The translations under genes were made by a program, and so were the position numbers. Shown piece after piece: positions 37,244-61,320 of a DNA stretch of 64,000 nt. The notes below the pieces were generated by a model that saw only the letters and a program-made list of their open reading frames with translations, did not search any database and had not been told where the DNA came from. Within the stretch, counting starts at the first letter, position 1. Every line of letters starts with the position of its first letter. The DNA is taken from positions 96,001 to 160,000 of the IMG/VR virus record IMGVR_UViG_3300032820_000001, one strand, 5' to 3'. The stretch comes from a virus.

Positions 37244-37250
37244 TAAATAC
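37244..37250 (-). promoter_or_regulatory. Putative late promoter GTATTTA upstream of gp25
   Basis: Variant of the recurrent heptamer. Confidence 0.45.
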
Positions 37251-43200: not shown

Positions 43201-44938
43201 GACATTCACTATATTCCTCTTTCCCGAAAAATGCTTTGGAGGCTGATTGGGCGCCCATTAAGTTGGCACTCACATTGAAACTCTCTTTTGCAGCCATTTC
43301 CAGAACCGAAAACTTATTTAAATATCTTAAACAGTTCCCGGTCTTGAGTGGGGAATCGTCGCTGAAAAGTTCTGGTTTAAGAAAGAGGTTTGCTATGAAT
43401 TGGGGGCTAGCCTTGCCTGTTTTTTTTGAAATCCCGCCGTCATAACTGAATATAATTACTCCCTTAAAATTAAATTGTTTATCAGTTACAATTGTTGCTT
43501 GATACTTTGATTCAAATCTGGATTCAATAATATCAGACACGTCAGAATTATTTTCTTGAAGTGCCTTAAGAATTTGATCTGGGACTTCTTTCAGTTGGCG
43601 TAAATCTCTTTTAAAATCATTTCCAAACGTATATACCTGCTTACCTCTTTCCATATCCCCTTTTAGGCTTTGATCCAAATAAAGAAACAACTTCTCAATG
43701 CTTTGCATTTTAGAAGAGTAGTATTCCGCGAATGGTTTTATCAACTCAAAACCCAGAGCGTCATCTTCCAATCTGCTTAATTTAAAATTCTTATCCAAAA
43801 GAGAAACTTTGTCTTGCAAGAGGTCTTCAGATAGAAGAGAATTTAAATTTATGAAATTAAAATCGAATACCGATGCGCCGGGGATGAGGAGACTTATCTC
43901 ACGGGCTTGTTTAGTGGATTCGTGGATGGCGATAACTCTTTTTTCATGTGCGGCCTCTTCCTCGTCTTCAATCCTTTGAGCTTCCTTTTCTACTTGTTCT
44001 GCGGTTAGTCTACGAATGGTAGCAAGGCCGGCTTGTTCTTCATCTGAGAGGAGTGTTTCGGGCTCAACATATGCGGTGCCATATAGGTCCTCAATTGCTT
44101 GTTGTATGCTGCCAGTATCTTGAAGATCAAGATCAAGTCCATATCGCGGGTCTGTAAGTGAGAAAATCGTCTCTGCGTCGGCGTTGGCATATTCCCTTTC
44201 AAGATTATCGGCCAAGTTAAGATCACTGCTCATGGCTGAAATATTGCTGGCCATTCGATACTCTCTCTGGTGGTAGCGTGGTGATTTTAACCTTGCCACC
44301 TGAGCCATTCTCTCTATTGATTGATTACTTCCTTGGAGAGTTGCTATTCTTTGGCTTTCACTTTCCGGAGTGATTACTTGCCGCGACCCGGATGGTTTTA
44401 AGAAGTGTTTTGCTAATTCTTCGTCGACCCAAAACTCCGCTTCATACCAATCCAATGCACTGGAAAGGCCCTCGGCCATATCTTTATCAATTTTCGCTGC
44501 AGCTTCGGAATTTAGATTTTTTATTCTTTCAAGCCGGGCTTTTTCTTCGTCGGCCAATTGCGCCAAGGTAAGTGGTGTTACGGGCCCTTTGCGGGCGACT
44601 CCCTTGTTGAGACTTGTTACAAGGTCCACCTGCTGTAAAATATCTGACCACTTCTGATCAAATTTCATTTGGGAAAGTCTTCGTAAAATTTCTTCCCGCT
44701 TTTCTATCGCATCTTTTTCGACCAAAAAAGCCAACTCTGTCCAAAACTTTTGGTTGTAAGCTCTCTCATCATCTTCGCGTTTCGCGGTGCGTTGCATCGC
44801 TATTTTCTTTTCGACTACCTCTACTGCAGCAACAGCTTCACTGCTAGACAAACCAAAAAGATGCATTGCTGCACCAGCAAGGTGGGCATTTAAATTTTCT
44901 AAACGTTCTTCGTTTTCGTTTTCTGCGTCGGAGGCCAT
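37250..44938 (-). CDS. Giant tail/baseplate protein, 2562 aa: helical N-terminus, central LamG domain, His-rich segment
   Basis: LamG-like AVSFNG...FHQIGFSW...LIIDG...FAGQIDEI...WWRMGD (about 41540-42270). GHYH/PHTH/HVH motifs (about 38225-38380). Confidence 0.75.
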   Translation of the reverse strand: MASDAENENEERLENLNAHLAGAAMHLFGLSSSEAVAAVEVVEKKIAMQRTAKREDDERAYNQKFWTELAFLVEKDAIEKREEILRRLSQMKFDQKWSDILQQVDLVTSLNKGVARKGPVTPLTLAQLADEEKARLERIKNLNSEAAAKIDKDMAEGLSSALDWYEAEFWVDEELAKHFLKPSGSRQVITPESESQRIATLQGSNQSIERMAQVARLKSPRYHQREYRMASNISAMSSDLNLADNLEREYANADAETIFSLTDPRYGLDLDLQDTGSIQQAIEDLYGTAYVEPETLLSDEEQAGLATIRRLTAEQVEKEAQRIEDEEEAAHEKRVIAIHESTKQAREISLLIPGASVFDFNFINLNSLLSEDLLQDKVSLLDKNFKLSRLEDDALGFELIKPFAEYYSSKMQSIEKLFLYLDQSLKGDMERGKQVYTFGNDFKRDLRQLKEVPDQILKALQENNSDVSDIIESRFESKYQATIVTDKQFNFKGVIIFSYDGGISKKTGKASPQFIANLFLKPELFSDDSPLKTGNCLRYLNKFSVLEMAAKESFNVSANLMGAQSASKAFFGKEEYSECLNPNSWMANLPAGLAALTSNSYTDYIKFSKQFQRPNIMNAPGTEIEKKEKRANETKTDVSAFSKVVKGTVDAAQETAIDFMANDYIVSPKDSMIKYLSIDDAGEKEYLGLGKPKEAEWIIAGGHGTPQLSERSLKEREKISPGFAEREENRKDSPLAILSRDYSFTGEGLLGLNKGLEATFKESYDKYGNALTLLEGKVIKVPKAGLGSSFGGMLDVGSGMFKGVGEMDYGKIWKEALLDPFISKVCPNTLPKRIIECLMPSDCKEIIKWIGLWRTRDMVENFANLDVFDDRNGIMAALEQWDEAVSEGYNFKAVSFNGDGLLKSGDFDPKDLYTNGPDKFSVSLLVRTTTMANIANGIPNQREVNAGYTKFIFSHEDTFAIKKTSKGNISVVLKSADGKTAEYSSSGEADIFDGKFHQIGFSWVGSIGELVLIIDGREVKTKLIRGSRIRGPLAVKDPGSKIIVASEKATKSSKGFAGQIDEICIFPYVLPNEDWRTLAKIESDKNLNSYGLSVKASAWWRMGDSVGDRLSTGAIDDVEGQIIDRISSIDLTPLSVTSNNPSTFTSSSEPSPAKSVAAMKNSDQFIIVARLFKLADEDKFIDILNRNVDLAKLCAMIVKFINDLVEFGMDPEATIEDIKNMFKMPKFAKDPYLNVGMFIEKTVITNLIKTLSDFLLDMLEEYILNCQNWKQLLQGLTKGALAGGDVGAAWNDAFGDAMGDNSLLKLLRGEAGDDLMKDLYNFTEESMEFVKSSVKVTGAGGVAGAPGTPVTLNLGDVVWSEEAFAAEETYAYPGGPGEPDLQLSIQDTSTSLLDRNTTIEIIRKTTDTLEPDESLQLLGGTASDAVIGKVKDIVRDNFTKSSSTVNINTIPTIFGSFGEALGARAAINQLTQMADILSANFPVSDDPCPPGKNFRDVYGQGLSPMAAAKAKALAQRIFDFSENSTSPNACPTPTPLSDFEKRALSKTISDVFSSVLLAYDSDLLLYRLGLTSVDEKTRQIKKVFWKEEKIHRDVYDNASNKMVSKVIEIEETQINPEFRTVVDQGFVPTNFLGQIDGTKAGGVVETDWFAWGWPEKRPPRSVQEDEDVRNLGPGKALGPYTDYTEEYATVAEPVVKLGGESTKALEKANLNFSMSDDLSGDSAAYFADRTNTTSNRGYKNILSKSKTSLLSAPTHLQGIATLLEDSYSTITHGTRYGSALDGKKSVKFEKKGADPFSFDASIDFSLSADLRKKIADAGYDEGANAECDDDLPDNLKYTPQENVFEFVVNQTSPNLQLSPEDLKTTVYDNIYREALTAMLFKVSDSPLLKTVPGTNDGHGGELVGLNFIKINTTPRLIDMESFSEQVSEDYSTLLSCPDKLDEAPLYKALKTSVPRILARIYLVDLILRGIIPFSQLFFSKKDAVIKEFIIKNLKRDMGLFLTGDNPNGVKAKIVQQFNYLADTGHIDESSLDEESFRSNWEDAMGYFLEDEFDFVANRIKEVVHGKCIDKQDSSADGVNKNMYDDIIRYAKVESANLNVKNYMVTKPTKRFPNGEKIENYFINKNNEDDIDRIGISLSYSYNDQEVILSLIEEDWESVKENLDINLDGTACEDRALYPSSGVTTEGDGHYHQYEIDENGNGRTTSTQGSGPPHTHGIFNYTVVPLTGPDENVKHVHALAKNPDKSDVSGATIKFQIQGHMEKALVADDNFKIMFDYCFDLRDVSSLVLIYTLLVAENQLMSRAFNGTKKAILDMFVWLWKDGPSADPCNTDVTSSKSPDFGALLPDLGNFMNNPQALLMFILAPLLTFRGWTKTFDPHVFITTSIMDVMNMPINPIWRWENVPDPLNDFELKCIEVPTWPGTRLIDDLTLPNSPENPIGTHFVLNGITVEGGVATLVTFAPCAFGSPPFPPTPFGFWYYLLVMPLIWLIRDLPRLLDLLLEDPNGQMLLQSIGLNANGELTCDDTDEGSQESSDPVDGQDGSKCPVPKTFNDTIIDVSSSEC

Positions 44939-49555: not shown

Positions 49556-50557
49556 CTACTTGAGAGTAGTTTTTAAAATTCTCCAACAAACCAAATATGG
49601 ATCGCAATTGGAGGCAGGGCGTCTATCTTCTAAATAGCCCTTCCCGTCTCTATTTACCTGCCATGGAATCCTAATTGATGCACCTCGATCTGAGACTCCT
49701 GCTCTGAAGGTATCAATGTCGCACGTTTCGTGGTCGCCTGTCAATCGTTTTTCGTTTCCGTTACCATACATAAAAATATGTTCCTTATGCATCTTCTCTA
49801 ATTTGTCAATTGCTTCATGAATAAATTTAATTCCATTCTCTTCTCGCATGGCTTTGGTGGAGAAATTTGTGTGGCAACCTGCGCCGTTCCAGTCGCCTTC
49901 GACGGGCTTAGGGTCGAGTGATACGGTCAATCCCTTTTTGGCACAAATCTTTTCCATAAGCCACCGGGCCACCCACAAATCATCAGATACACGAAGAGGG
50001 TCTGCAGCTCCGATTTGGTATTCCCATTGGCCAAGCATTACCTCAGAATTGATACCGCCTATTTTGATACCACACTCAATGCACATGTCCAGATGGTAAT
50101 GAGCAATTCCGTCGCCAATGTTTCTTCCGCAATAATAATCACCTTGAGGGGGAGGCTCGCCATTGTGCCACCCAAGAGGCTGGCTACCTTTATAGAGAGT
50201 ATATTCTTGTTCAATGCCAAACCAAGGATCGCTGGTATCGGATGCCGTAAAGGATTCTAAGACCTGTCGAGTGTTTGTTTTGTGGGGGTTGTCATCGACA
50301 TTCCAGACCTCACATAAAACTAAATAACCAGAATGATCCAGGGGGTTTTCATATACCCTAACTGGCTTTAAAACACAATCTGAGTCATTGCCTGCTGCCT
50401 GATTTGTTGAGGAACCATCGAAGCCCCAAATCGGGCAATCCTCCACCAAGGGGAAGTCTTCGAAGGTGCCGAAACTATCTTCAACAATTTTTGTTTTACT
50501 CCTCAGTGTCGGGGTTGGTTGTGTACCATCTGTCCATATATATTCTAATTTGGTCAT
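49556..50557 (-). CDS. glnII: Glutamine synthetase type II (eukaryote-like/GlnII), 333 aa
   Basis: LEYIW, WGFDGSST, GIEQEY, INSEVMLGQWEYQ, DWNGAGCHTNFS, RLTG.HET, RGASIRIP and YLEDRRP. Confidence 0.95.
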   Translation of the reverse strand: MTKLEYIWTDGTQPTPTLRSKTKIVEDSFGTFEDFPLVEDCPIWGFDGSSTNQAAGNDSDCVLKPVRVYENPLDHSGYLVLCEVWNVDDNPHKTNTRQVLESFTASDTSDPWFGIEQEYTLYKGSQPLGWHNGEPPPQGDYYCGRNIGDGIAHYHLDMCIECGIKIGGINSEVMLGQWEYQIGAADPLRVSDDLWVARWLMEKICAKKGLTVSLDPKPVEGDWNGAGCHTNFSTKAMREENGIKFIHEAIDKLEKMHKEHIFMYGNGNEKRLTGDHETCDIDTFRAGVSDRGASIRIPWQVNRDGKGYLEDRRPASNCDPYLVCWRILKTTLK

Positions 50558-50871
50558 TTGCTATCTCCTGTAGGTTTGCCAAAAAAATCTTCTGTGTTCA
50601 TATTTTTATCATCTATAAAGAGGTCATATTGAGGTTTCCCAAATTTCAATTCGTGGTATTGGACGCCCCAATCGTCGAATTGTCTTTCTGTTACTTTTCT
50701 CCAGTTTATTCCAGTTCCAGTTCCTCTTGCCGTCCAATAAATTATCGTATCTCCATTATCATACATTTTGTTTATTTTGTTAATGTTTTTCTTTATGGGA
50801 ATGGCCTTTGAATAATCTCTGCTTTCCGGAGAAACACAAATTGTTTCATCGATGTCAACGTAGATAATCAC
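50554..50871 (-). CDS. Small HAD-family phosphatase (capsule-biosynthesis phosphatase-like), 105 aa
   Basis: YVDIDETI, WTARG, GKP and FIDDK (HAD motifs I-IV). GTG start. Confidence 0.85.
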   Translation of the reverse strand: MIIYVDIDETICVSPESRDYSKAIPIKKNINKINKMYDNGDTIIYWTARGTGTGINWRKVTERQFDDWGVQYHELKFGKPQYDLFIDDKNMNTEDFFGKPTGDSK

Positions 50872-50874
50872 ATG

Positions 50875-51570
50875 TTACTCCGGATCATAACTGGATACAA
50901 GAACAATTCTTACTTTGTCCTTCTCCTGATTCAAGCCACGGTGGGCGCCAGCTACGGCAGCAATAACTAAATCGCCCTTTTCGATCCCCGTATAAACTTC
51001 ATAATTATCCCTCTCTTCGCCGCTGAGGGGTTCGTAAATATCATATCTTCTGTGGTATTTCTTGCCTCCCTCAAGGTGAGTGCCCTTTATATAACTAAAC
51101 GGTCCATAGGTCTCGTCTGGAACGTCAGTCAGAAAACAAAAAGATTTTACCCTTGATGGGAAAATATCGGAATCTGCATGAATCCCTCTGGTTCGGACGC
51201 CACGATTTACATAGAGGTTGTGGGTAAAAAATTTATATTTTGTTTCGAAAGATCGTTCAATAACGTTGAGTGAGTGTGTTTTTATCTTTTCTAAAATATT
51301 TTGGCTTTCCGGTGAAAAATAGCGATCAATATTCCAAACATCGATCAGGCCATCGTCTCCATCGCGAGTTGGTACTCGGCGGTTTATCACATACTCCTTA
51401 CTCTCCCTAAGTGATTCATAAGTGTTAGCTAAGTCAGGCTGAACGTTGTAAATATCCTTCTCGTGAACAAGAGTGTCCACCTCAGACAAAATTAAAGATA
51501 ATTCATTATCGGAAAGAAAACTTTCCCTCTTTAGGACGCCCTCTTCTCTAAGAACTTTCTCTTCTTTCAT
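50875..51570 (-). CDS. 2OG-Fe(II) dioxygenase, PhyH-like
   Basis: IHADSD (HxD), GPFSYIKGTH and AHRG (distal His). Confidence 0.82.
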   Translation of the reverse strand: MKEEKVLREEGVLKRESFLSDNELSLILSEVDTLVHEKDIYNVQPDLANTYESLRESKEYVINRRVPTRDGDDGLIDVWNIDRYFSPESQNILEKIKTHSLNVIERSFETKYKFFTHNLYVNRGVRTRGIHADSDIFPSRVKSFCFLTDVPDETYGPFSYIKGTHLEGGKKYHRRYDIYEPLSGEERDNYEVYTGIEKGDLVIAAVAGAHRGLNQEKDKVRIVLVSSYDPE

Positions 51571-52178
51571 ATAATCTCCTTCTCACATAGCATCATTTCA
51601 AAATATTTTTGTGTTTTATTTTCTAGAATAATGTTTTTATTATTTAATAAAAAACTCTTATAATACAGAAGATCCTTCTCGATGCTGTGGCACCTTTCCT
51701 CTTCTCGTAAGTCCTCTAAATCATAATATCCACTAATATAATTCATCTTTGATGAAAATCCATTATAATAAAAATCAAAACCTGCCACAAAGACCTCTGC
51801 ACAAATTGAGGATAAGTAATCAACAATGGCTGTTCCATAGTAAGGGACGTGCGGTGCAAACTTTTGTCTGAGCTTGTTCCATGTGCTTTCTATATCATAA
51901 ATTTTCGCTCTCTCTTCTAAGACGCCGGATAGCAGTGTTATATCTTTTTTTTCCTTTACGAATATTGTTTTTCCTGTGAGACTTTTTGCCCTTTCCGGGG
52001 AACTATAAAATTTCACACAACTCGTATTTAAAAATATAACATCAAAATCAACCTTCCTCGATAATTCAGATTCCATCACCTTGTTTGTTCCGACAACGTT
52101 GTCATAATTTTTGCATTCTGACAAGTCAAAGCCCTCAAGTGCCTGCAGTGATGGTCCAACTAATATGACTTTTTTCAT
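51567..52178 (-). CDS. Sialyltransferase-like glycosyltransferase (GT29-like), 203 aa
   Basis: L-motif-like VILVGPS...YDNVVGTN, S-motif-like PYYG...CAEVFVAGFDFY, VS-like HSIEKD. Confidence 0.62.
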   Translation of the reverse strand: MKKVILVGPSLQALEGFDLSECKNYDNVVGTNKVMESELSRKVDFDVIFLNTSCVKFYSSPERAKSLTGKTIFVKEKKDITLLSGVLEERAKIYDIESTWNKLRQKFAPHVPYYGTAIVDYLSSICAEVFVAGFDFYYNGFSSKMNYISGYYDLEDLREEERCHSIEKDLLYYKSFLLNNKNIILENKTQKYFEMMLCEKEII

Positions 52179-52885
52179 TTGTTTTTCACCGCGAACAGCT
52201 GCAGCTGTCCTGTTTTTGCTGTGAAGGTTGTGACATCAAAACCTTCTTCTCTGATGTTCTGGACAATGTGTTGAGACATTGCTTTTGAGTTTGCGATGTT
52301 CCAATGAAATTCAACCGAAATAAATCTGAGCTCTTTGATTTTCTCTTGCATCATCTCTGAAAGGAAGAGTTCGTATTCTCCTCCCTCAATGTCGCAAATG
52401 AGTGCATCAAAAACCAGACCGTTCTCTTGCTCAATCTCTCGAACAGTCTTTGTTTCTATGTCCAGTGTTTCGTGAATTCTGCTTTTCTGCATAGCAGTAG
52501 ACGAGCCGAGGATGCTGCGCTTGTCAACATAGAACTCGACAGAGCCTTCTTTGCTGCTCACAATGCAGTTTTTCACTTTAAACTTTGAGTCGTTCAGGTT
52601 TTTGTTGTTCTTTATCGTTTCGATTAAGTTTGAGTTTGCCTCGACGACGACATGGTTTTCCTTGTTCTCCAAGAGACGATTCGTGGCACAAGAGATAAAA
52701 CCGATGCAGCCACCGAGTTCCAAGACTGTGCAGTCTGAAGGCATAGTGTTCAGCATTTCGAACTCTTCGGCTTCCCATTCTCCAGTCTTCAGTCTCTCAA
52801 CAAGTTTGGAACCAAACAAATCGCCAGAAGGAGATAGTATCTCCTCCTCGACAAAAATCTTGATGTTATCAATATTGTAAAGCAC
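52175..52885 (-). CDS. FkbM-family SAM methyltransferase
   Basis: VLELGGCIG, VVEAN, LICDIEGGE and ISVEFH. GTG start. Confidence 0.88.
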   Translation of the reverse strand: MLYNIDNIKIFVEEEILSPSGDLFGSKLVERLKTGEWEAEEFEMLNTMPSDCTVLELGGCIGFISCATNRLLENKENHVVVEANSNLIETIKNNKNLNDSKFKVKNCIVSSKEGSVEFYVDKRSILGSSTAMQKSRIHETLDIETKTVREIEQENGLVFDALICDIEGGEYELFLSEMMQEKIKELRFISVEFHWNIANSKAMSQHIVQNIREEGFDVTTFTAKTGQLQLFAVKNK

Positions 52886-53535
52886 TATCTCTTCCTCAAA
52901 ACATAGGTTCCAATACGCTTATTCCCAGTGTATCTCAGTTCACCAATTTTTTCCACCAAAGACTCATCAACGTCATCGACAAACTGAATTACACCCTTCA
53001 TGTGTTCTGCATAATCATCTAGTAATATATACCCACCCTGTTTTACTAGAGGAAGGTATTCTGTGAAGTCTTTTTTTACAGAGTCATAGTCGTGATCCGC
53101 ATCAATAAAGAGAATGTCTACTTCTTCAGAAAAAAAGTCTCTAACTTGATTTGGAACAGAGGGATCTCTTAAATTTCCTGCGATGAGGGTAAAATCATTA
53201 TCAAAAGGATTATTGGATTCAATATTACTTCTTGTTCTTTCAATGTTTATTTTGTCATGGTTTTTGTGTTTGGGATCATGAGTGTCTTCAAAGAGATCGA
53301 CCCCGCAACACTTTACACCACTGGTGGATGAGATAACGGTGCAAAAAGATGCACCATTGTGAACCCCCAGTTCTAAATAATTTATCCCTTTTCGGTTTTC
53401 TGCAAGAATTTTCGTCAATATAGAGGCAGAAATGATCTCATCATGAATGAACCTGCCATTGAAATTCTTCTTTATTTCCTTCAATCTATCAAGCTCTTCT
53501 TGAACTCGTTTCTCTTCTTGTAAAAGCTTCAACAT
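52885..53535 (-). CDS. Class I SAM methyltransferase (Methyltransf_24-like)
   Basis: YLELGVHNGAS, ILFIDADHDY and GGYILLDDY. Confidence 0.88.
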   Translation of the reverse strand: MLKLLQEEKRVQEELDRLKEIKKNFNGRFIHDEIISASILTKILAENRKGINYLELGVHNGASFCTVISSTSGVKCCGVDLFEDTHDPKHKNHDKINIERTRSNIESNNPFDNDFTLIAGNLRDPSVPNQVRDFFSEEVDILFIDADHDYDSVKKDFTEYLPLVKQGGYILLDDYAEHMKGVIQFVDDVDESLVEKIGELRYTGNKRIGTYVLRKR

Positions 53536-53538
53536 TTT

Positions 53539-54357
53539 TTATCCCCTCAAACTCTTTCGCTTATCAAGTTCCCCTCCGAGGCAAACTCGTGCAGCTTTAA
53601 TTCCCATTGCAGAGTCTATATCTCGGATTCCCTTTGTTAATTTCATAAACCCTTGTGGCTCAACGGAAGCAACCTGATCGCTGCCCCACATGGTGCGGTC
53701 GAGGGTGAGGTGTCTTTCTACCCAAGTACACCCCATTGCGACGGCCGCAAAGGTCGTCACCAAGCCATATTCGTGGCCACTGTAGCCAATTTCGGCGGGG
53801 TACTTGTCTTGAAGCCACTTTATATAATTTAAATTAAGCTCTGAGACAGGTGACGGATACGTAGAGTTGGTGTGCATTATAACATCGGGGTTACATGCCG
53901 CCACACACTTCTCTATTTCTTCCTCCGTACTCATTCCTGTAGAGATTATAAGAGTTTCAAAATTATTCCTAGCGTAGCGGCACAAATCCAAGTCTGTGAT
54001 TAGGGCAGATGGAATTTTAGATATATTCCCATATTTTTTCATAAAATCTACAGACGGAAGATCCCAAACAGAAGCGAAGCATTCAACCCCCTTCTCTTTT
54101 GCGTATGAAAAAATTTGATCAAACTCTTTCTCCTCGAATTCGATCCTCTTTTTATAATCAATGTATTTTATCTCTCCCCAGGGAGTTTGTCGCAATTTGT
54201 TTTTCTGGTCGTCGGGGACGCACAGATCCGGAGTTCTCTTTTGGAATTTAACATAATCGCATCCCGCGATGGAAGCCACGTCGATAAGCTTTGTTGCTAT
54301 ATCGACAGAGCCATTGTGATTGATTCCTATTTCTGCAATAACTTTTGTCATAACCAT
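53539..54357 (-). CDS. neuB: N-acetylneuraminate/nonulosonate synthase, short form lacking the C-terminal SAF/AFP-like domain
   Basis: IAEIGINHNG, VKFQKR, KIPSA, IISTGMS, YPSP, GYSGHE, VERHLTLD and GSDQ. 272 aa. Confidence 0.95.
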   Translation of the reverse strand: MVMTKVIAEIGINHNGSVDIATKLIDVASIAGCDYVKFQKRTPDLCVPDDQKNKLRQTPWGEIKYIDYKKRIEFEEKEFDQIFSYAKEKGVECFASVWDLPSVDFMKKYGNISKIPSALITDLDLCRYARNNFETLIISTGMSTEEEIEKCVAACNPDVIMHTNSTYPSPVSELNLNYIKWLQDKYPAEIGYSGHEYGLVTTFAAVAMGCTWVERHLTLDRTMWGSDQVASVEPQGFMKLTKGIRDIDSAMGIKAARVCLGGELDKRKSLRG

Positions 54358-54971
54358 AGTGATACCTTCTTCAGTTCTTCTTCATAGTCAACATCAACGA
54401 CGTCTCCTATTTTATAAAAATATGTATTTTTATTATACATGTTGTTGTTTAAATTTTTAAGTTCCGAAATATTAAAAATGCATATATAGTGACTCAATTC
54501 AAAGCACTCTGGATAATCCTGGCGGCGGTGAAGATTATGAGGTATAATTTGCTTTCCAGCGGTGGGAGATGATTCGATCATACATAAGTAAGGGTGAGAC
54601 TTAACAGGTTGGCGGCACAATAAGGAGCTGGCGCCGGCGTGGAGATAGCACTGATAAGCATCTATAACGTGTTGCCAACGACGCTCTGGGTAAGTTAAGT
54701 AGAGCATAATTATATCCTCGTCCTCTTCCGACCCCTTCACAACCTCTGACACGACTGACCAAATTGAAGAAGTGTCTTCCGAAACATCGGAACTTCTTTG
54801 ATGGATTTCCACACCTTTTGGTAGCACCTTTTTAATCTCCTCGTCGTCTGTAGATACCACAACATTCGCAAGATAGTCCGCTGGTATTGTATCCAAAGTA
54901 TATCGCAGCAATTTCCGATTTTTATAAGGAAAGCCCTTAGAGCCCGCCCTCGCTGGTATTAAAATCTTCAT
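54348..54971 (-). CDS. neuA: CMP-nonulosonate (acylneuraminate) cytidylyltransferase
   Basis: ILIPARAGSKGFPYKN, VVSTDD, RRQD and VDVD. Confidence 0.93.
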   Translation of the reverse strand: MKILIPARAGSKGFPYKNRKLLRYTLDTIPADYLANVVVSTDDEEIKKVLPKGVEIHQRSSDVSEDTSSIWSVVSEVVKGSEEDEDIIMLYLTYPERRWQHVIDAYQCYLHAGASSLLCRQPVKSHPYLCMIESSPTAGKQIIPHNLHRRQDYPECFELSHYICIFNISELKNLNNNMYNKNTYFYKIGDVVDVDYEEELKKVSLWL

Positions 54972-55702
54972 TTTATATTTATCCGTGGTATTTCTGAAGA
55001 TAGTTCTGATACTTCCGAAATTAAAAAGATCTCCACCCCAATGGATTTACAAAAAGAATATAACTCAGAAGTAGAAGATATCAATTCATCCTTTTCGCCA
55101 GGGAATAACTGTCCTATCTTCGCTCCTGGGTTTTTTAACACCTTCTTCGCTTTCTTTTCGTCATAAAAGTGTTTGAGAGTTCCGTCATCGGCAGTAGTAT
55201 AGTCCCATCCATTTATATATAATTTAGAAAAACCCATATGAAGCAGTGTGGGAAGTACCGTTTCATACATAATGCCAGGACCCCACCTTCTTATTGGCCC
55301 GAAGGAAAAATCATCAAAATTACAATCCGACGCGGTGGTGTCGCGGTGGGTATCTATCCCACAAAACAAATCCGGGGTATAATTAAAAAAGGTTTTATAT
55401 TGTTCCGCAGAGAGGGCGCCAGAAGAAGCAAACTTTAAAGTATTCGGGTGGTATACATATTCTAAAAAATTATTATCATTAATAAAATGAAAATCTGTTA
55501 TTTCTTTAAGTTTTATTTGAGATTGTTTTATGCATGCTACTTTTTTATTCTCACAGAATTTCTCTATATCTCTCAACTCTAAAGACTTAAATGACGGCCC
55601 GCACGAAAATATTACACACTCTTGTCCCGCAAATGAGCCTTTCATGAAATCAGATTTTTGTTTAAAAGATTGCAGCTCCCTGAGCGACTTACATGAAAAC
55701 AT
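54968..55702 (-). CDS. Maf/DUF115-like putative nonulosonate transferase, 244 aa
   Basis: CVIFSCGPS...HMGFSKLYINGWDY (GxGPS ... GxD, Maf/GT29/GT42-type fold). GAGG RBS before ATG 55702. Confidence 0.65.
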   Translation of the reverse strand: MFSCKSLRELQSFKQKSDFMKGSFAGQECVIFSCGPSFKSLELRDIEKFCENKKVACIKQSQIKLKEITDFHFINDNNFLEYVYHPNTLKFASSGALSAEQYKTFFNYTPDLFCGIDTHRDTTASDCNFDDFSFGPIRRWGPGIMYETVLPTLLHMGFSKLYINGWDYTTADDGTLKHFYDEKKAKKVLKNPGAKIGQLFPGEKDELISSTSELYSFCKSIGVEIFLISEVSELSSEIPRINIK

Positions 55703-56957
55703 TTCTCGCCTCTGCTTCGAGCTCCTCGCGGTGTGTGCAGTGATCCAAAACAATTGAAGAAAATTTATTATACATTTTTTCTGCCTCAAACTCTTCTTCA
55801 ACAAATTTCTTCAACTTCTTTGCCTTGTTGGAGGCCAACTGATAGTCCTTGTAAACATCTCTCATTTTGCTTTTTGCAGAGTTGTCCTTGGGATACGCCC
55901 ACATAGAATCTGGAGTTATAACCCCTTCCCAGACAGACTCCTTTTGAACTTTATGTAAGTCATAAGAAACTTTCCCAAAAAGACCTTTTCTTTTTGTCTT
56001 TCCTTTTTTATCCTTCTGGGGGGCGTAGAGAAAGTCCATATGGCCACTCCAATCTGTGGCGATAATTGGTAAGTCATTGTAGGTCGCTTCAAAGAGGGGG
56101 AGGCCGAAGCCTTCTCCGTGAGCCAACGATACCATACACTTAATTTTGTCATGACGATAGAGTGTAGTCATCTCTTCGTCTGAGAGTCTCCCGTGTAAAA
56201 GATAGATCTTACATTTTCTATCTGGATATTTCTTAACTAGGTTTTTTAATAGACTTTCGGTACCGAGCTTATCGTATGTTGATCCGCCCCTAATTGCGGT
56301 TTTTAAAACAAGACCTACATCCTCCTCATCCTTGAATTCCTCAACAAAGTTCAAAATTGTCTTTTCAAGATTCTTTCTCTGACCCCATAAAGCGACAGAT
56401 AAAAAATTAAAAGAAGTTTCAAATTCAAAATTGACCTTAGCAGGTTTATATTTTTTAACCGGATACCCAACAACTGATATTGGGGTTTCACAAACTAAGT
56501 CAGATACATGTTCACCACTGTTATTCGTTAGGGGATATTTGGTGTTTTCAAATCCGCGTTTTGCGTGTTCTGAAACTACAATTATCTTGTCCATTTCGTT
56601 GGCCTTTTGGAGCCAAATTGGGGCGATCTTGGTTGTTTCGATCCCTGCCGTTACACCGATATTTACTTTGGCCATCTTCTCAAATTCATTTGGAATTGTC
56701 ACCTGCAACGATATGTCAAAATCTAAGTTCTCTTTATTTTGGCTGATATAGTTGGCAGTTTTCCCGATAAGACCATCGATCCACTCTCGCTCTTCGGAAT
56801 CTTCAAATATCCATCCCGTTTTGCCCCAATTAAGGTTGTGAAAATATATATCAAAAATATCCTCTCTGGTGCGGAGAGCTCTCAAAACGAAACGTGCATG
56901 CTCTCCATACCCAGACGCGGTGAGGGCTGGGCCTTTTACAATTACTTTCTTTTTCAT
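55689..56957 (-). CDS. Glycosyltransferase family 4 (GT-B), 422 aa
   Basis: SGYG..AR, RKNL and EGFGLPLFEA. Confidence 0.9.
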   Translation of the reverse strand: MKKKVIVKGPALTASGYGEHARFVLRALRTREDIFDIYFHNLNWGKTGWIFEDSEEREWIDGLIGKTANYISQNKENLDFDISLQVTIPNEFEKMAKVNIGVTAGIETTKIAPIWLQKANEMDKIIVVSEHAKRGFENTKYPLTNNSGEHVSDLVCETPISVVGYPVKKYKPAKVNFEFETSFNFLSVALWGQRKNLEKTILNFVEEFKDEEDVGLVLKTAIRGGSTYDKLGTESLLKNLVKKYPDRKCKIYLLHGRLSDEEMTTLYRHDKIKCMVSLAHGEGFGLPLFEATYNDLPIIATDWSGHMDFLYAPQKDKKGKTKRKGLFGKVSYDLHKVQKESVWEGVITPDSMWAYPKDNSAKSKMRDVYKDYQLASNKAKKLKKFVEEEFEAEKMYNKFSSIVLDHCTHREELEAEARNVFM

Positions 56958-58216
56958 ACAATCTCCTTCAGCGTCCAGTTATTATATTTTTTTCTTTCTG
57001 CCCAGGAGCCATAATCTACCATCGCCTTTTCAATCAGGTCAGCCCATGTCTTTTGGAAGTTCTCAAAATTATAATTCTTATCAACGTGTTCCTTGCCAAG
57101 TTGTCCAAGTTTCTTTCTCTCATCTTCTGACATTTCGAACATCTTTTGCATGGCATCCGTAACATCTTTTCCGTTGAGGCGATCTTCGAAGATCCAGGGA
57201 ATCTCCTGTGAGCCTATGATTGCTTTGGATGATGGTTCGATGCCGAAGCCGAAGAAGTTCTCGCCGTCCGTGACCTGCTCTTGGAGACCACCTGTCATCG
57301 TAGCAATGATTGGGGTTTCACATGCCAGTGATTCAAGAGTCGCCAAACCAAATCCTTCGGCATCGGAGACGTTTATCGTGCAATCGGCCATGTTATATAA
57401 GTGTGCCAAGTCTTGTGGTGGCAACTTTGCAGTCGAAAACATAACTTGCCCATTGGCCATGCCAAGTTCTTTTATAATAACCTCTAAGTCCTGACCATGT
57501 GGATCTTTGACGTCAGTGTGCATAATTAGGCATGTTTTGTCATCGCCAATGCGGTCTAACAAATCCTTATACCAATAGATGAGGGAGCCGCTTTGTTTTC
57601 TTCGAGCATTTCTATTGTTCCAAAAGAAGATAAACTTATCTTCTCCTTTGATTTTTTCCATTACTCTGTTTTTATATTTTATTATTTCATCGCCCGGAAG
57701 AGGCTTGAAGATCTCCTGGTTCACCGCGTGGGGAACGTAGTGGCATTCTACTTCGGGTGCCACCGTTCGAACTATATCGTCCGTGACCTTGGAGATTGTA
57801 GCAATTACATCATTAGATAAATAATGTTTTCTATTGAATGTCGGGTAAGGGTAATTATCCCAAACGTGATAATAAACCAAGGGGCACAGCGCACGAATCT
57901 CGTCATCTATTTCCCACAACCAACCCCAGAAGCGGGGATCGGTCATTATCCACACCATGTCTATCTTTTCAGTTCTTAAAAACGAACGAATTAGATCTGG
58001 TGTTCCGTAGCCGTCGACGGGATGAGTAATCCAATCTTCTCCATACTCTTCGGTTTTGGTGGGATTATAATTGCCGTGTTTAACGGCGCCTCCCAGAGAA
58101 ATAACTTTGTATTTTCCCGTTTTCATCAAAGCATCAATAACATACTTTGTCTGTGTTCCGACACCACTTGGTGAAAATGGGTGATCGGAAATTGTTAAAA
58201 TCTTTTTCTTTGTCAT
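56954..58216 (-). CDS. Glycosyltransferase family 4 (GT-B), about 420 aa
   Basis: SGVG, NRNARRKQ and EGFGLATLES. ATG 58216 follows AGGGG. Confidence 0.9.
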   Translation of the reverse strand: MTKKKILTISDHPFSPSGVGTQTKYVIDALMKTGKYKVISLGGAVKHGNYNPTKTEEYGEDWITHPVDGYGTPDLIRSFLRTEKIDMVWIMTDPRFWGWLWEIDDEIRALCPLVYYHVWDNYPYPTFNRKHYLSNDVIATISKVTDDIVRTVAPEVECHYVPHAVNQEIFKPLPGDEIIKYKNRVMEKIKGEDKFIFFWNNRNARRKQSGSLIYWYKDLLDRIGDDKTCLIMHTDVKDPHGQDLEVIIKELGMANGQVMFSTAKLPPQDLAHLYNMADCTINVSDAEGFGLATLESLACETPIIATMTGGLQEQVTDGENFFGFGIEPSSKAIIGSQEIPWIFEDRLNGKDVTDAMQKMFEMSEDERKKLGQLGKEHVDKNYNFENFQKTWADLIEKAMVDYGSWAERKKYNNWTLKEIV

Positions 58217-58224
58217 AGTTTCCC

Positions 58225-59007
58225 CTACGGGCAATGTGTCGTCCCCCTAAACTCACATCGATTACAGGACAGACGATTCTTAACATAGTTTTGCCTATCA
58301 ATATTATAAACCGATTGTTCCAAAAGTTTAAGGGCATTATTTGTCTTTTTTTCTCCCGATGTAACACGGAAGAATTCAACCCTATCTTTTTTGCCTGTTC
58401 TCTTGAGGAGAGCAAAATAAGTTTCAATATTTTCTTTTGGAATTCCTCGTTTTTCTGAAATGAAATGCTTGTAATAAGTCAGTTGATATGTCACCATTGG
58501 ATCTGTGCGTTTCCGCATGTCCCAACCCCAGCTGCAGGATTTCCAGTCAATGACATGATACTTTCCATCTGGGGTTTTGATGATACAATCCACATATCCC
58601 TTGAAGGAATACTGGTCATCTGTATCTAATCTTAATTTTTCATTTATCTCTTCCTCTGAAGAGACAAGATCAAACTCTCCAAAGTATTCTTTGAGGGCTG
58701 GTAATATGTGAGGGATTATTTCCCTCCCTTGCTCTAGGAACACTTTGGCATCATCCATCGATGGTGCAACATCGGGAGGAAGAATTTTCAACTCTTCGAC
58801 GAGCTGTTTTTTGAAATATTCCTCTGGTTCAAAGGATTTCTTAATTTGGTTGCTAATAAGCATAGCTTCACAAGTGTCGTGAATAGCTTTTCCAAAGGCG
58901 GTATAAACGTTTCCTTGGAAAACTTTTAATTTATCTATTCTCGTTAGCTTATGGTAAAAGGCACAAAATTTCCAGTCTTTAATAGCGGAAAATGATACGT
59001 GTGGCAA
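58225..59007 (-). CDS. PD-(D/E)XK RecB/Cas4-like nuclease with an Fe-S-type Cys staple
   Basis: GYVD, IDWK and YQLTYY motifs. One N-terminal Cys plus C-terminal CNRC...HCP. TTG start. Confidence 0.85.
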   Translation of the reverse strand: MPHVSFSAIKDWKFCAFYHKLTRIDKLKVFQGNVYTAFGKAIHDTCEAMLISNQIKKSFEPEEYFKKQLVEELKILPPDVAPSMDDAKVFLEQGREIIPHILPALKEYFGEFDLVSSEEEINEKLRLDTDDQYSFKGYVDCIIKTPDGKYHVIDWKSCSWGWDMRKRTDPMVTYQLTYYKHFISEKRGIPKENIETYFALLKRTGKKDRVEFFRVTSGEKKTNNALKLLEQSVYNIDRQNYVKNRLSCNRCEFRGTTHCP

Positions 59008-59363: not shown

Positions 59364-60013
59364 ACAAATTTCTCTCCCAAGTTATCTAACAACTCTTCAA
59401 TCTTAAAATAAACAGCTGGACTAAACAACTTTACGTGCTTTGCTTCCCTCATGAAATACTCCTCAAACGCAATTGCAAAATATTCTCTTACTGACGTGGC
59501 CGCATAGGGCGACAGGAAAAGACCAGAAGCAAAGTTTCTTAATAGTGGATATCCAATATCTAAATAGAGGAAATCATCAAACTTTTCCGAATATTCTGCA
59601 TTAAAGAAGTCTAAACCGCTTAAATCATATCCATGTGATGACAGAATTTCATAGAGTTTTTTTCTTTTTCCCAAAAATTCTGTTTCAATTGTCTCGTCCT
59701 CATAAATTTGTGGGAGTAATTCTTCAATTGAATGGGCCACCTCGTGAACCACGCTCAAGAGGGCAGTTTCGTCATCTTCTATATTTGAGGACATATAAAT
59801 GATGCCATCTTGATATACTGAATCTACTTCTCGATCTCTGAGGTAATCGGAATTGCTTATAAGTATATAATCCAAATCTTGTGTCAGCGGCTGTGGGAGC
59901 TTTTTCTGCACAGCTTTCAGAACTGCCTGTACATTGAAGGACGCCTTATCCTGAATGATGACTGGAATTCTGTTATACAATAACAATTCTTTTTGTTCTC
60001 TATTAACTATCAT
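59360..60013 (-). CDS. HExxH zinc-metallopeptidase-like protein, 217 aa
   Basis: VVHEVAH with downstream REYFAIAFE (zincin third-ligand Glu). Confidence 0.65.
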   Translation of the reverse strand: MIVNREQKELLLYNRIPVIIQDKASFNVQAVLKAVQKKLPQPLTQDLDYILISNSDYLRDREVDSVYQDGIIYMSSNIEDDETALLSVVHEVAHSIEELLPQIYEDETIETEFLGKRKKLYEILSSHGYDLSGLDFFNAEYSEKFDDFLYLDIGYPLLRNFASGLFLSPYAATSVREYFAIAFEEYFMREAKHVKLFSPAVYFKIEELLDNLGEKFV

Positions 60014-61320
60014 AAAATTTTAGCCGCAAGTGTTGCCACTTCGCTTCGCTCACCTTTTTTAAACGACACATGGCCGCCTAAGCTATATTCTTTAAATTTC
60101 TCCACCGCGTGGGTGAGACCATTAGAGGTCTCATCAACATAAGCATTATCTATTTGTTCTATATCTCCCGTCAATACCAATTTAGAATCTTCTCCCACTC
60201 TTGTTATTATAGTCTTTAATTCGTGTCTTGTTAAATTTTGAGCTTCATCAATGACAATAAAAGCCTTTGAAATAGATCTTCCACGAATATAAGTGATAGC
60301 TTCCATCTCTATTGTACCACGATCTAAGTATTCTTGCAACATTAATTTATCATTTCCCATGAGGAATTGAAGATTATCTTGGATTGGGGTAAGCCACGGG
60401 GCCATTTTCTCTTCCATTGTGCCGGGTAGAAAACCAATGTCCTTTCCAAGTGGTTGTATTGGCCTCGAAACAATTAAGCGAGTGTAATCTCCGGAAGCCA
60501 TGACTTGCTCAAGGCCGGCAGATAAGGCACATAATGTTTTGCCAGTCCCAGCAGATCCAAGCAGACTGACTACAGGAATCCTTCTATCAAAAAGGATATC
60601 CATAGCAAACTGTTGTTCTTTGTTACGGGGAGAAATTCCATAGGTAGTCTTTTTGTTAAAAATCTTACGGAGTGGTTTGCCGGGCTCTATAAATCTCGCA
60701 AGGGCCGTCTTATTCTTGTCTGACTGTGATTTCAGCAGAAGAAACTGATTGGGGTTGAGATCATCGCACTTTAACTTAAAATTCTTTCCAGCATAAAACT
60801 TGTCTATTTTCTCATCGGATATTGTCCTCTCTGTAAATCCAGTATATACTTCGTCTCCAGACTCAAGAACTTGATCTGGATTATAATCTTGAGTTGGGAG
60901 GCCCAGGGCATCACATATTACTCTCATATTAACATCGCGAGATACAAGGATAACATTAACTTTGGGTCGGTTTTTTCTCTCCTGCATTGCTGTTGCAATT
61001 ATCTTGTGGTCGGGGATTTCTGGGGAGAGGTCATCTGGGAGGTATTTATGTACGTCTACATCACTTGGTCTTACTCTTAGAATTCCTTTTCCCTTTTGAA
61101 TTCGGACTCCTTTATATAAAGATCCTATCTCTCGCATATCATCGAATATGCGGATAATAGTTCGAGCGTTCGATCCCACTGAGTCTTGTCTCTTCTTATG
61201 CTTGTCGATCTCTTCTAGCACCTTCATTGGGACAATAATATCGTTTGTTCCATATGCATAAACAGAATTGGCATTTGTCAGAAAAACGCTCGTATCGAGA
61301 ACGTAGGTACATTTTTTCAT
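60010..61320 (-). CDS. phoH: PIN-domain PhoH-family ATPase
   Basis: PIN residues VLDTSVF, EEID, PDHKI and SRD. Walker A GSAGTGKT, RGRS, Walker B IDEAQN, GDIEQID. Confidence 0.94.
   Translation of the reverse strand: MKKCTYVLDTSVFLTNANSVYAYGTNDIIVPMKVLEEIDKHKKRQDSVGSNARTIIRIFDDMREIGSLYKGVRIQKGKGILRVRPSDVDVHKYLPDDLSPEIPDHKIIATAMQERKNRPKVNVILVSRDVNMRVICDALGLPTQDYNPDQVLESGDEVYTGFTERTISDEKIDKFYAGKNFKLKCDDLNPNQFLLLKSQSDKNKTALARFIEPGKPLRKIFNKKTTYGISPRNKEQQFAMDILFDRRIPVVSLLGSAGTGKTLCALSAGLEQVMASGDYTRLIVSRPIQPLGKDIGFLPGTMEEKMAPWLTPIQDNLQFLMGNDKLMLQEYLDRGTIEMEAITYIRGRSISKAFIVIDEAQNLTRHELKTIITRVGEDSKLVLTGDIEQIDNAYVDETSNGLTHAVEKFKEYSLGGHVSFKKGERSEVATLAAKIL

Follow-up and report, generated by a model that had tools for sequence, protein, structure and literature searches.

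A marine, uncultured T4-like phage carries a ten-gene island whose products very probably build a sialic-acid-like nine-carbon sugar (a nonulosonate), activate and modify it, and transfer it to an acceptor. As an earlier note on this DNA had described, ten open reading frames (g1 to g10) were found back to back on the minus strand at positions 50554-58216 of the window, i.e., the whole 64,000-nucleotide stretch that was analyzed, with 1-11 base overlaps or 3-base gaps at their junctions. The family assigned to each of the ten genes was likewise supported. Pfam or NCBIfam thresholds were passed by both GT4 glycosyltransferases, NeuB, the NeuA-like cytidylyltransferase and both methyltransferases; the dioxygenase (g9) and HAD phosphatase (g10) calls come from sub-threshold matches, and the Maf/DUF115-like (g3) and GT29-like (g8) calls from predicted fold and profile comparison only.

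The gene content agrees with the earlier suggestion of a sugar that is synthesized, CMP-activated, transferred and tailored. We propose that the ten genes form a single operon with which this lytic, marine T4-like phage builds a glycan in the cytoplasm, a scheme that, taken as a whole, we consider about equally likely to be right or wrong. In this scheme, g5 would join PEP to a host sugar, most likely a 6-phosphate such as mannose-6-phosphate, giving a nine-carbon 2-keto-3-deoxy acid of the KDN-9-phosphate type; g10 would take off the terminal phosphate, and g4 would form the CMP-sugar. Transfer would be performed by g3 and g8, two sialyltransferase-fold enzymes; the GT4 enzymes g1 and g2 would add underlying hexoses, and g6, g7 and g9 would methylate and hydroxylate the product. 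We infer every substrate, product and acceptor in this pathway; the gene content, gene order, family and fold assignments, conservation and cassette variability described below are observed.

The synthesis and activation core

The synthase gene (g5, 53539..54357, minus strand) encodes a short NeuB-family PEP-sugar condensing enzyme of 272 aa without a SAF domain (PF03102, 4.5e-65). When aligned with N. meningitidis NeuB, it keeps the catalytic and metal positions (Glu, Lys, Asn/Tyr, two His, Asp), and PDB matches were obtained to PseI (8h2c), a short NeuB (6ncs) and NmNeuB. Since the protein scored below the respective cut-offs of the NeuB and PseI equivalogs of NCBIfam (TIGR03569, 209 bits; TIGR03586, 166 bits), and its top match among solved structures is C. 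jejuni PseI, which makes pseudaminic acid, the identity of the sugar cannot be named from the NeuB sequence. The adjoining gene (g4, 54348..54971, minus strand) encodes a NeuA-like CMP-nonulosonate synthetase (CTP_transf_3, PF02348, 1.3e-8) that matched the NCBIfam PseF model under its cut-off (TIGR03584, 1e-10), its best solved relatives being CMP-Neu5Ac synthetases (6ifd, 9e-13; 1eyr).

The third component (g10, 50554..50871, minus strand) is a minimal 105-aa HAD sugar-phosphate phosphatase (phrog_1238, 1.3e-24), with a TIGR01689 match under cut-off (2e-5) and a match to PDB 9iqw (8e-10) in which the DxDxT motif aligned. It belongs to the EcbF/BcbF, AfhF-like subfamily and not to the KdsC/BT1713 type of KDN-9-P phosphatase. 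Homologues of g10 are found as the phosphatase gene in cyanophage sugar clusters and in phage clusters for DNA arabinosylation, and its relatives work in the pathways of other sugars (heptose, arabinose). In T4-like coliphages, its homologues occupy the site of a phosphatase reported to strip the terminal phosphate from arabinose-1,5-bisphosphate (PMC13326640). Nonulosonate synthesis and CMP activation are predicted with high confidence.

The pathway had been called apparently complete, which is overstated. Within the window we found no NeuC or NanE/NanK, nor any Pse/Leg dehydratase, aminotransferase or acetyltransferase; with no gene for the hexose or hexosamine precursor, completeness depends on the unproven use of a host sugar phosphate. 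The NeuB lacks a SAF domain, and NeuC and Pse/Leg precursor genes are absent; a 9-phosphate (KDN-type) route is our best guess, as yet unproven and evenly balanced. In routes via phosphorylated intermediates the required enzymes are precisely a synthase, a phosphatase and a CMP-synthetase, as in Bacteroides thetaiotaomicron, Prymnesium and humans, and the usual bacterial nonulosonate routes need no phosphatase (PMC6200933). The same trio serves CMP-KDN synthesis in B. thetaiotaomicron (KDN-9-P synthase BT1714, KDN-9-P phosphatase, CMP-KDN synthetase) and Prymnesium parvum, with the same phosphorylated-intermediate logic and likewise no epimerase or amino-sugar genes (PMC6200933). The phage system differs from these in its 105-aa minimal phosphatase of another subfamily, in its SAF-less synthase with predicted substrates, and in that its genes are viral, with transferases and tailoring enzymes attached.

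NeuB proteins 58-73% identical to g5 were found in at least 108 IMG/VR contigs. A survey of related genomes, which the earlier note had suggested, showed that NeuA, NeuB and the 105-aa HAD phosphatase are kept together in 67 of 80 related viral loci while the surrounding genes vary. The phosphatase was present in 70 of these loci and adjoined NeuB directly in 37 of the 70. The trio is a conserved core with variable tailoring genes around it, a finding that is new here.

A different chemistry, which bears on the product and not on the target, would have NeuB condense a non-phosphorylated host-made precursor (ManNAc or 2,4-diacetamido-2,4,6-trideoxyhexose) to give Neu5Ac, legionaminic or pseudaminic acid, with the HAD phosphatase used in another step. 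The relationship of g5 to C. jejuni PseI, the NCBIfam matches to both NeuB and PseI models and the non-nonulosonate pathways served by g10 relatives are consistent with this, as are the SDR dehydratases, DegT aminotransferases and 2-epimerases in many related loci. Indeed, 48 of the 80 loci carry SDR and/or DegT genes such as characterize Pse/Leg-type routes, so that the core may serve diamino sugars there. The present phage, however, has none of the precursor genes, and such a route would need a host that already produces the sugar. Moreover, no gene accompanies NeuB across loci more constantly than the phosphatase, which often abuts it, and a phosphatase plays no part in the usual bacterial routes (PMC6200933). 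We regard this chemistry as possible but rather unlikely.

Transferases and tailoring enzymes

Two proteins are predicted to adopt a sialyltransferase fold. The first (g3, 54968..55699, minus strand) is a minimal MptE/DUF115 (Maf-like) protein of 244 aa. Alone it had no Pfam match; in its family of 29 proteins, 19 of 27 members matched PF01973 (MptE/DUF115) below cut-off. Its AF2 model (pLDDT 88) retrieved MptE (8sd5), Cst-I (2p2v), Maf (5mu5) and Cst-II in Foldseek with a probability of 0.99-1.0 each, and hhalign against a viral MptE-like family gave 97%. As modeled, g3 is as close to the kinase MptE as to Maf. The second (g8, 51567..52178, minus strand) is a minimal, soluble GT29/GT42-like protein of 203 aa that had no Pfam match and just four near-length relatives among 5.8 billion proteins. 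Its AF2 model (pLDDT 84) matched Cst-II, ST6GALNAC2, ST3Gal-I and ST8SiaIII in Foldseek (probability 1.0, TM 0.5-0.6), its atlas neighbours were viral GT29 clusters, and hhalign against a viral GT29-like family, whose representative matches PF00777, gave 97% probability (E 3.5e-11). One sialyltransferase-fold gene was found in 50 of the 80 related loci. It is reasonably likely that g3 and g8 are the predicted transferases.

Both proteins recall known bacterial systems. The Campylobacter jejuni LOS sialylation module (NeuB1, NeuC1, NeuA1, Cst-II) similarly combines a synthase, a CMP-synthetase and a small soluble GT42/GT29-fold sialyltransferase, and Cst-II and Cst-I rank among the structures that g8 and g3 match best; the phage, in contrast, has no NeuC, sequence identity to Cst-II is 14-18%, and the lipooligosaccharide acceptor is that of C. 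jejuni. In Campylobacter, Helicobacter and Aeromonas, the islands for flagellin O-glycosylation (Pse/Leg genes plus Maf transferases) share cytoplasmic CMP-nonulosonate synthesis, hypervariable tailoring genes including methyltransferases and, as predicted for the phage, DUF115-fold enzymes that pass the sugar directly to a soluble structural protein. Unlike Maf, g3 is the core domain only, without flanking Maf domains and below the Pfam cut-off, and the phage involves neither flagellin nor Pse/Leg precursor genes.

The GT4 pair opens the island. For g1 (56954..58216, minus strand; PF00534, 1.4e-15, PF13692 and PF20706; phrog_2170, 8e-33), the longest reading frame starts from a TTG at 58234, with an ATG at 58216. 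The second GT4 enzyme (g2, 55689..56957, minus strand) is more divergent (PF00534, 3.1e-8; phrog_2170, 3.5e-20), and an E-x7-E motif was seen in both translations. The predicted tailoring enzymes comprise a CmcI/TylF-like class I SAM methyltransferase (g6, 52885..53535, minus strand; Methyltransf_24 PF13578, 6.4e-16; PF04989, 4.6e-8; PF05711, 5.7e-6), which is a probable sugar O-methyltransferase, and an FkbM-family methyltransferase (g7, 52175..52885, minus strand; PF05050, 1.2e-10; TIGR01444, 5.1e-16, over cut-off). They are joined by a PhyH-like Fe(II)/2-oxoglutarate dioxygenase (g9, 50875..51570, minus strand; PF05721, 8.8e-4, 20 bits against a 22-bit cut-off), with an HxD...H pattern in its translation, viral PhyH clusters as atlas neighbours (score 0.96) and a structural TM of 0.85 to PhyH.

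Candidate acceptors

The earlier note had put forward virion proteins, the host surface and DNA as targets; the three are not equally likely, and we rank a virion protein first, the host envelope second and DNA last. No membrane protein is encoded in the island, indicating cytoplasmic assembly, and among 1,808 ORFs of related loci no polytopic membrane protein was found bar one, on a contig labelled as giant virus. Given that all products are soluble, that the GT4 pair is kept across phages of different hosts and that the distal genes vary, a phage-encoded protein is the most likely acceptor, probably on the virion, although as a specific assignment this is tentative. Virus-encoded glycosylation of the virion is known from the capsid and tail of mycobacteriophages and the fibril glycans of giant viruses, which supply their own glycosyltransferases and sugar pathways to decorate the particle. 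To our knowledge, no phage particle has been shown to carry a nonulosonate, and we infer virion targeting here from the lack of membrane genes and the retention of the GT4 pair, both of them indirect signs.

Alternatively, the CMP-sugar and transferases might serve to remodel the LPS, capsule or surface glycoproteins of the infected host by means of its own lipid carrier, flippase and ligase, e.g., to block superinfection or grazing. This is the standard literature reading of LPS-like clusters in marine T4-like phages (PMC7029224), and a lake viral neuA/B/C cluster was read likewise (bioRxiv 10.1101/655167). Furthermore, lipid-linked or LOS acceptors at the inner membrane face are common substrates of GT4 and GT29/GT42-type enzymes, which are not themselves membrane proteins, and the trio of short NeuB, cytidylyltransferase and HAD also occurs in cellular (bacterial) polysaccharide loci. 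Nevertheless, neither the island nor the 80 related ones contain a priming phosphoglycosyltransferase, flippase, polymerase, ligase or transporter, and the fact that phages infecting hosts as unrelated as Flavobacterium, Rhodothermus and Microcystis retain the GT4 pair is more in line with a phage-encoded acceptor than with host-specific envelopes. A lytic T4-like phage would also have little time for surface turnover. We consider a host-surface target rather unlikely.

Hypermodification of DNA, in which the GT4 pair and sialyltransferase-fold enzymes would decorate a hydroxylated base as in the glucosyl-5hmC or arabinosyl-5hoC of T4-like phages, is far less probable still. T4-like phage sugar clusters (cyanophage heptose/LPS-like; arabinosyl-5hoC of RB69, DLP3 and HY126) also make their own activated sugars, and share GT-B transferases and the small HAD phosphatase family with its reported removal of a terminal sugar phosphate. 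In keeping with a DNA target, the island lies among DNA-metabolism genes, g1 resembles the T4-like DNA arabinosyltransferases in being a GT-B enzyme like BshA, MshA and sucrose-phosphate synthase, and coliphage homologues of g10 sit in a DNA arabinosylation cluster. Those clusters, however, make NDP-heptose or UDP-arabinose, and the coliphage ones target DNA via a ThyA homologue, whereas this phage has NeuB and NeuA instead; a search of its complete genome found no thymidylate-synthase (ThyA)-family gene, the source of 5hmC, 5hmU and 5hoC. In addition, a comparison of g1 with the DNA glycosyltransferases of coliphage and Acinetobacter phage detected no similarity at E 1e-5, and nonulosonic or sialic acids are not mentioned in a survey of phage DNA glycans. 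A Tet_JBP search gave no match, which carries little weight since its controls were silent too.

Genomic setting and precedent

That the island is host DNA mis-assembled or mis-binned in a viral contig is a negligible prospect: although bacterial polysaccharide loci typically contain NeuB, GT4 and methyltransferase genes, the 191,133-base record, a complete genome, has direct terminal repeats, phage genes flank the island on the same strand, its G+C equals that of the remainder of the phage, and the slot with its flanks recurs in dozens of independent viral contigs as well as in a cultured phage, where the nonulosonate genes are missing. The phage origin supposed by the earlier note thus stands. 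The slot lies between a PD-(D/E)XK nuclease and a gp55-like sigma factor. Other genes near the island include PIN-PhoH and a SAM lyase, which with the nuclease belong to DNA metabolism.

Contrary to what had been supposed, phage nonulosonate genes have precedents, although no phage nonulosonate itself has been characterized. Counts of neuB and neuA in viromes were published in 2013 (Roux; PMC3877843), and a neuA/neuB/neuC cluster was reported in 2019 in the Lake Biwa viral genome LBVG_26 (bioRxiv 10.1101/655167), in both cases in uncultured tailed viruses with other polysaccharide genes, and read as auxiliary metabolic genes. Those reports list the genes only and, as far as we read them, do not describe the conserved trio with the phosphatase, the SAF-less synthase, the two transferase families or the cassette variability.

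The placement of g1 beside the nuclease gene is kept in relatives and in the cultured Flavobacterium phage immuto, which shares with this phage the order nuclease-GT4-GT4 followed by a variable glycan cassette. In relatives g2 is always paired with g1, and phages of Rhodothermus and Microcystis carry GT4 homologues as well. Finally, in the closest relative the flanks are 80-84% identical and the island has diverged or been replaced, i.e., the cassette was swapped.

A ten-gene island in a T4-like phage genome

The source record comprises 191,133 bases with direct terminal repeats. Its phage, a distantly T4-like myovirus, encodes a gp23-type capsid protein and has Flavobacterium phage immuto (42% identity), Microcystis phage Mel-JY01 and Rhodothermus phage RM378 as its nearest cultured relatives. 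Ten minus-strand open reading frames (ORFs; 58216-50554, g1 to g10 in transcription order) follow one another with overlaps of 1-11 bases or gaps of 3 bases. All ten family assignments proposed for these genes in an earlier note were borne out, with a strength that varied from gene to gene. Curated thresholds were exceeded by g1 and g2 (GT4 glycosyltransferases), g4 (NeuA-like CMP-synthetase), g5 (NeuB-family synthase), g6 (CmcI/TylF-like methyltransferase) and g7 (FkbM); g3 (MptE/DUF115-like, i.e., Maf-like) and g8 (GT29/GT42-like) were identified through predicted fold and profile comparison only, and g9 (PhyH-like) and g10 (HAD phosphatase) through sub-threshold matches.

The possibility that the segment is mis-assembled host DNA, raised in the earlier note, is ruled against by the recurrence of the same slot in related contigs, by a G+C content that is uniform between the island and the remainder of the phage, and by flanks in which phage genes share the island's strand. 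On the upstream side are genes for a PD-(D/E)XK nuclease (minus strand) and a PIN-PhoH fusion (PIN_4 plus PhoH; 60010-61320, minus strand), the latter 91% conserved in the closest relative. The first downstream gene shares 4 bases with g10 and encodes a glutamine synthetase-like protein of 333 aa (49556-50557, minus strand; Gln-synt_N plus Gln-synt_C, with a type II N-terminus); next comes a SAM lyase gene (PF23780; 48959-49546, minus strand), and the downstream flank also holds a gp55-like sigma factor gene (minus strand). The glutamine synthetase-like and SAM lyase genes, which lie in the conserved flank, show 81-88% conservation towards the closest relative and probably fall outside the glycan island. 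A role of the former as a tailoring amidoligase was rejected, given its type II glutamine synthetase look and its conserved-flank position beside the SAM lyase gene. A motif scan found no enrichment of the T4 late-promoter motif TATAAATA and no copy of it near the island. Amongst GenBank phages, megablast with the island gave zero matches, and tblastn with NeuB gave three weak records only.

A conserved trio with a swappable cassette

A survey of cluster conservation in related genomes, which the earlier note had suggested, was carried out and showed that the trio of NeuA-like, short NeuB and small HAD genes (g4, g5 and g10 in the window) recurs, whereas the tailoring genes around it vary. Scanning of IMG/VR with confirmation by tblastn yielded at least 108 contigs in which NeuB identity is 58-73%, many of them with the same slot and flanks as the window; 80 were taken for comparison, and their 1,808 ORFs were clustered. 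NeuB was present in all 80 loci, a NeuA-like gene in 74, the small HAD gene in 70 (adjoining NeuB in 37 of these) and all three in 67. All other genes were variable, i.e., SDR epimerase/dehydratases (39 loci), DegT aminotransferases (35), UDP-GlcNAc 2-epimerase (10), UDP-sugar dehydrogenase, GT2s, pyruvyl transferase, WbqC, C-methyltransferases and PhyH. A single sialyltransferase-fold gene was found in 50 of the 80 loci (MptE-like in 31, GT29-like in 18, a direct g3 homologue in one). The MptE/Maf-like and GT29-like families co-occurred in none of the 80 loci (L002-L081); unlike these, the window holds a distant relative of both.

When window positions 55773-50870 were compared with the closest relative (L002:6764-18405), the flanks were 80-84% identical and identity fell to 66-78% across NeuA and NeuB, while the 2.7 kb carrying g6-g9, between the NeuB and HAD genes, gave way to 7.6 kb of other genes in L002. 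This cassette region is clearly a recombination hot-spot. The constancy of the trio, the variability of the remainder and the cassette swap in L002 together define an island built of a conserved core plus an exchangeable tailoring cassette. In cultured phage immuto the order nuclease-GT4-GT4 is kept, and the glycan cassette after it is a different one that lacks nonulosonate genes; the trio is also found in larger phages without the GT4 pair and in bacterial polysaccharide loci.

The closest 'cellular' NeuB matches (L084-L094; 58-71% identity) bear the taxon names SAR202, Planctomycetota, Woesearchaeota, Saprospiraceae, Flavobacteriales and Thermoplasmatales. Because these taxon labels are incompatible, the matches are probably phage contigs binned into MAGs, and they were set aside as a pointer to host or donor. 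In five loci (L011, L020, L063, L064 and L072) the short NeuB is accompanied by another, distant NeuB paralogue (24-26% identity), a pairing which suggests two different keto-acid sugars per phage.

According to the earlier note, such a pathway was known from no characterised tailed phage. We likewise know of no characterised phage nonulosonate, and to that extent the claim holds. The gene set itself was, however, already in the literature, neuB and neuA having been tallied in viromes in 2013 (PMC3877843) and a neuA/B/C cluster described in a lake viral genome in 2019 (bioRxiv 10.1101/655167). To this the present analysis contributes the recurring trio, a connection between the small HAD and a family of phage phosphatases in which one member is characterised, the two mutually exclusive families of miniature sialyltransferase-fold proteins, the cassette swap and the complete absence of membrane machinery.

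The trio enzymes and their candidate product

The g5 synthase matched PF03102 at 4.5e-65 (219.9 bits; Pfam cut-off 22.1) over profile positions 1-238 of 241. Aligned to N. meningitidis NeuB, it kept the positions for catalysis and metal binding (Glu, Lys, Lys, Asn/Tyr, two His, Asp), whose roles we take to be those known from work on the meningococcal enzyme. Amongst 13 aligned viral sequences, E9, K37/Q39, K114, Y167, H195, H216 and D227 were invariant, and N164 was conserved in at least 90%. The C-terminal SAF/antifreeze-like domain present in the NeuB, PseI and LegI equivalogs is absent from g5, which ends at residue 272, right past the linker, the same point at which the solved short form 6ncs stops. 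Both equivalog cut-offs were missed (TIGR03569, 209 vs. 399.65 bits; TIGR03586, 166 vs. 340.25 bits). The g4 protein scored 35.4 bits against PF02348 (CTP_transf_3; cut-off 22.6) and fell under the PseF equivalog cut-off; its best solved relatives are CMP-Neu5Ac synthetases, matched over the full length (PDB 6ifd, 9e-13; 1eyr, 8e-9).

The g10 protein is a HAD of 105 aa in which the DxDxT, Thr/Ser, Lys and DD motifs are visible and align to PDB 9iqw. It matched phrog_1238 at 1.3e-24 and TIGR01689 (EcbF-BcbF) at 24.5 bits, against a cut-off of 162 bits, and none of the NCBIfam KdsC/KDN-9-P phosphatase models. Homologues with 33-55% identity occur in 367 phage records. Those of cyanophages lie in sugar-nucleotide clusters, and those of RB69-like, Acinetobacter and Serratia T4-like phages lie in the DNA-arabinosylation cluster, where the corresponding enzyme is reported to strip the terminal phosphate from arabinose-1,5-bisphosphate (PMC13326640). 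Annotations of this small HAD family conflict, with 'phosphoheptose isomerase', 'capsule biosynthesis protein' and 'polynucleotide kinase' all in use (e.g., in Synechococcus phage Bellamy, L164, and Serratia phage CBH8, L167); the 'isomerase' label looks wrong because the sequence carries HAD phosphatase motifs.

Across the 80 loci the phosphatase was the most constant partner of NeuB. The usual bacterial nonulosonate routes need no phosphatase, and those of B. thetaiotaomicron, Prymnesium and human run via a 9-phosphate (PMC6200933). From this constant partnership, the 9-phosphate routes and the terminal-phosphate role of its homologues, it is reasonable to propose that g10 would act as a terminal sugar-phosphate phosphatase on nonulosonate-9-phosphate.

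With regard to the sugar itself, no epimerase, dehydratase, aminotransferase or acetyltransferase genes (NeuC, Pse/Leg precursor genes) were found amongst the ten genes and the scanned neighbours. What is present is a KDN-type gene set, i.e., synthase (g5), phosphatase (g10) and CMP-synthetase (g4) with the precursor genes absent, and the simplest product that we infer is KDN made from host mannose-6-phosphate. A Pse/Leg-type sugar is an alternative, to which the best solved relative of g5, a pseudaminic acid synthase, and the Pse/Leg-like genes of many sister loci both point. The trio of SAF-less NeuB, minimal HAD and NeuA is widespread in viruses, found in bacteria too, and uncharacterised; one set of enzyme assays on it would name the sugar for hundreds of loci.

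Soluble candidate transferases and the putative acceptor

The GT4 pair scored 57.7 (g1) and 33.8 bits (g2) against PF00534 (cut-off 26.4), and an E-x7-E motif was seen in both translations. For g8 (203 aa; predicted structure with pLDDT 84), the best 25 Foldseek matches were GT42/GT29 sialyltransferases (Cst-II, Cst-I, ST6GALNAC2, ST3Gal-I and ST8SiaIII) at probability 1.0 and TM 0.5-0.6 (GT-A variant 2 fold). It did not match PF00777 (GT29), a model that spans the sialylmotifs, and had zero Pfam matches at E 0.01; by hhalign it was linked (97%) with a viral family, the representative of which reaches 24 bits on PF00777 (cut-off 23), and its Atlas neighbours agree with a GT29-like assignment. 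A conserved H164 aligns to the invariant His of this family and would be the catalytic base. The predicted structure of g3 (244 aa; pLDDT 88) matched MptE (8sd5), Cst-I, Maf (5mu5) and Cst-II at TM 0.45-0.5. The threshold of PF01973 (MptE-like, DUF115) was not reached (14.9 vs. 34.6 bits), and 19 of 27 g3 relatives matched this model below the cut-off (best E 1.4e-6). At 244 aa, as against 632 for Maf, g3 is without the flanking Maf domains, which bind flagellin. For g9, a score of 20.0 bits against PF05721 (PhyH) fell under the 22-bit cut-off; an HxD...H triad was picked out by eye, 88-91% of Atlas neighbours were PhyH (score 0.96), and structural TM was 0.85. PDB sequence searches with g3, g8 and g9 gave zero matches. 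Miniature soluble sialyltransferase-fold proteins of this kind (~200-245 aa) could serve glyco-engineering.

No membrane segments were predicted in the ten island proteins, and amongst the 80 loci there was one polytopic ORF only, on a giant-virus-labelled contig. Neither the island nor the 80 loci contained a priming transferase, flippase, polymerase or transporter, and on these grounds glycan assembly is predicted to be cytoplasmic. DUF115-fold enzymes glycosylate a soluble filament protein directly. This precedent, the predicted cytoplasmic assembly and the spread of the GT4 pair favour a virion protein as the candidate acceptor. Remodelling of the host surface is a strong rival and the usual reading in the literature (PMC7029224; bioRxiv 10.1101/655167); however, the GT4 pair lies within the conserved flank, and its homologues are spread over phages that infect Flavobacterium, Rhodothermus and Microcystis, a range of hosts easier to reconcile with an acceptor encoded by the phage than with host-specific envelopes. 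Least likely is modification of DNA: the complete genome lacks a gene of the thymidylate synthase family and gave no match in a Tet_JBP search in which the controls were silent too, g1 matched none of the DNA glycosyltransferases known from T4-like phages, and nonulosonates go unmentioned in a survey of phage DNA glycans.

We advance a tentative reading which, taken as a whole, we consider rather unlikely: that marine T4-like phages, whose hosts are probably Bacteroidota, cover their particles in a methylated, hydroxylated KDN-like acidic sugar, which would be made from host mannose-6-phosphate by the virus-specific minimal trio and attached by the miniature soluble sialyltransferases, with cassette swaps making particle 'serotypes' differ between related phages. 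If true, it would be the first case of a phage virion glycosylated with a nonulosonate, and would add a new axis to the surface variation of phages in the ocean. Nonulosonic acids are key sugars in cell recognition and shielding. Should abundant marine phages make and attach them, there could be effects on the charge of particles, on how they stick to mucus and marine gels, and on grazing and decay, and host-range or exclusion phenotypes could change in ways that current models miss.

A scan for Ser/Thr-richness revealed no obvious serine-rich acceptor, such stretches being found only in the insertion region of the capsid protein and in one fibre. The gp23-type major capsid protein (G000:C1:77672-79363 of the source record, minus strand, outside the window) has a large variable insertion with a Ser/Thr/Ala/Gly-rich stretch at about residue 175 of the ORF, and the fibre (2562 aa; window 37250-44938) has a Ser/Thr-rich stretch. 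Both are possible candidate O-glycosylation sites, and as a pointer to the acceptor the capsid stretch is only a lead. The capsid insertion region is variable in phage immuto too.
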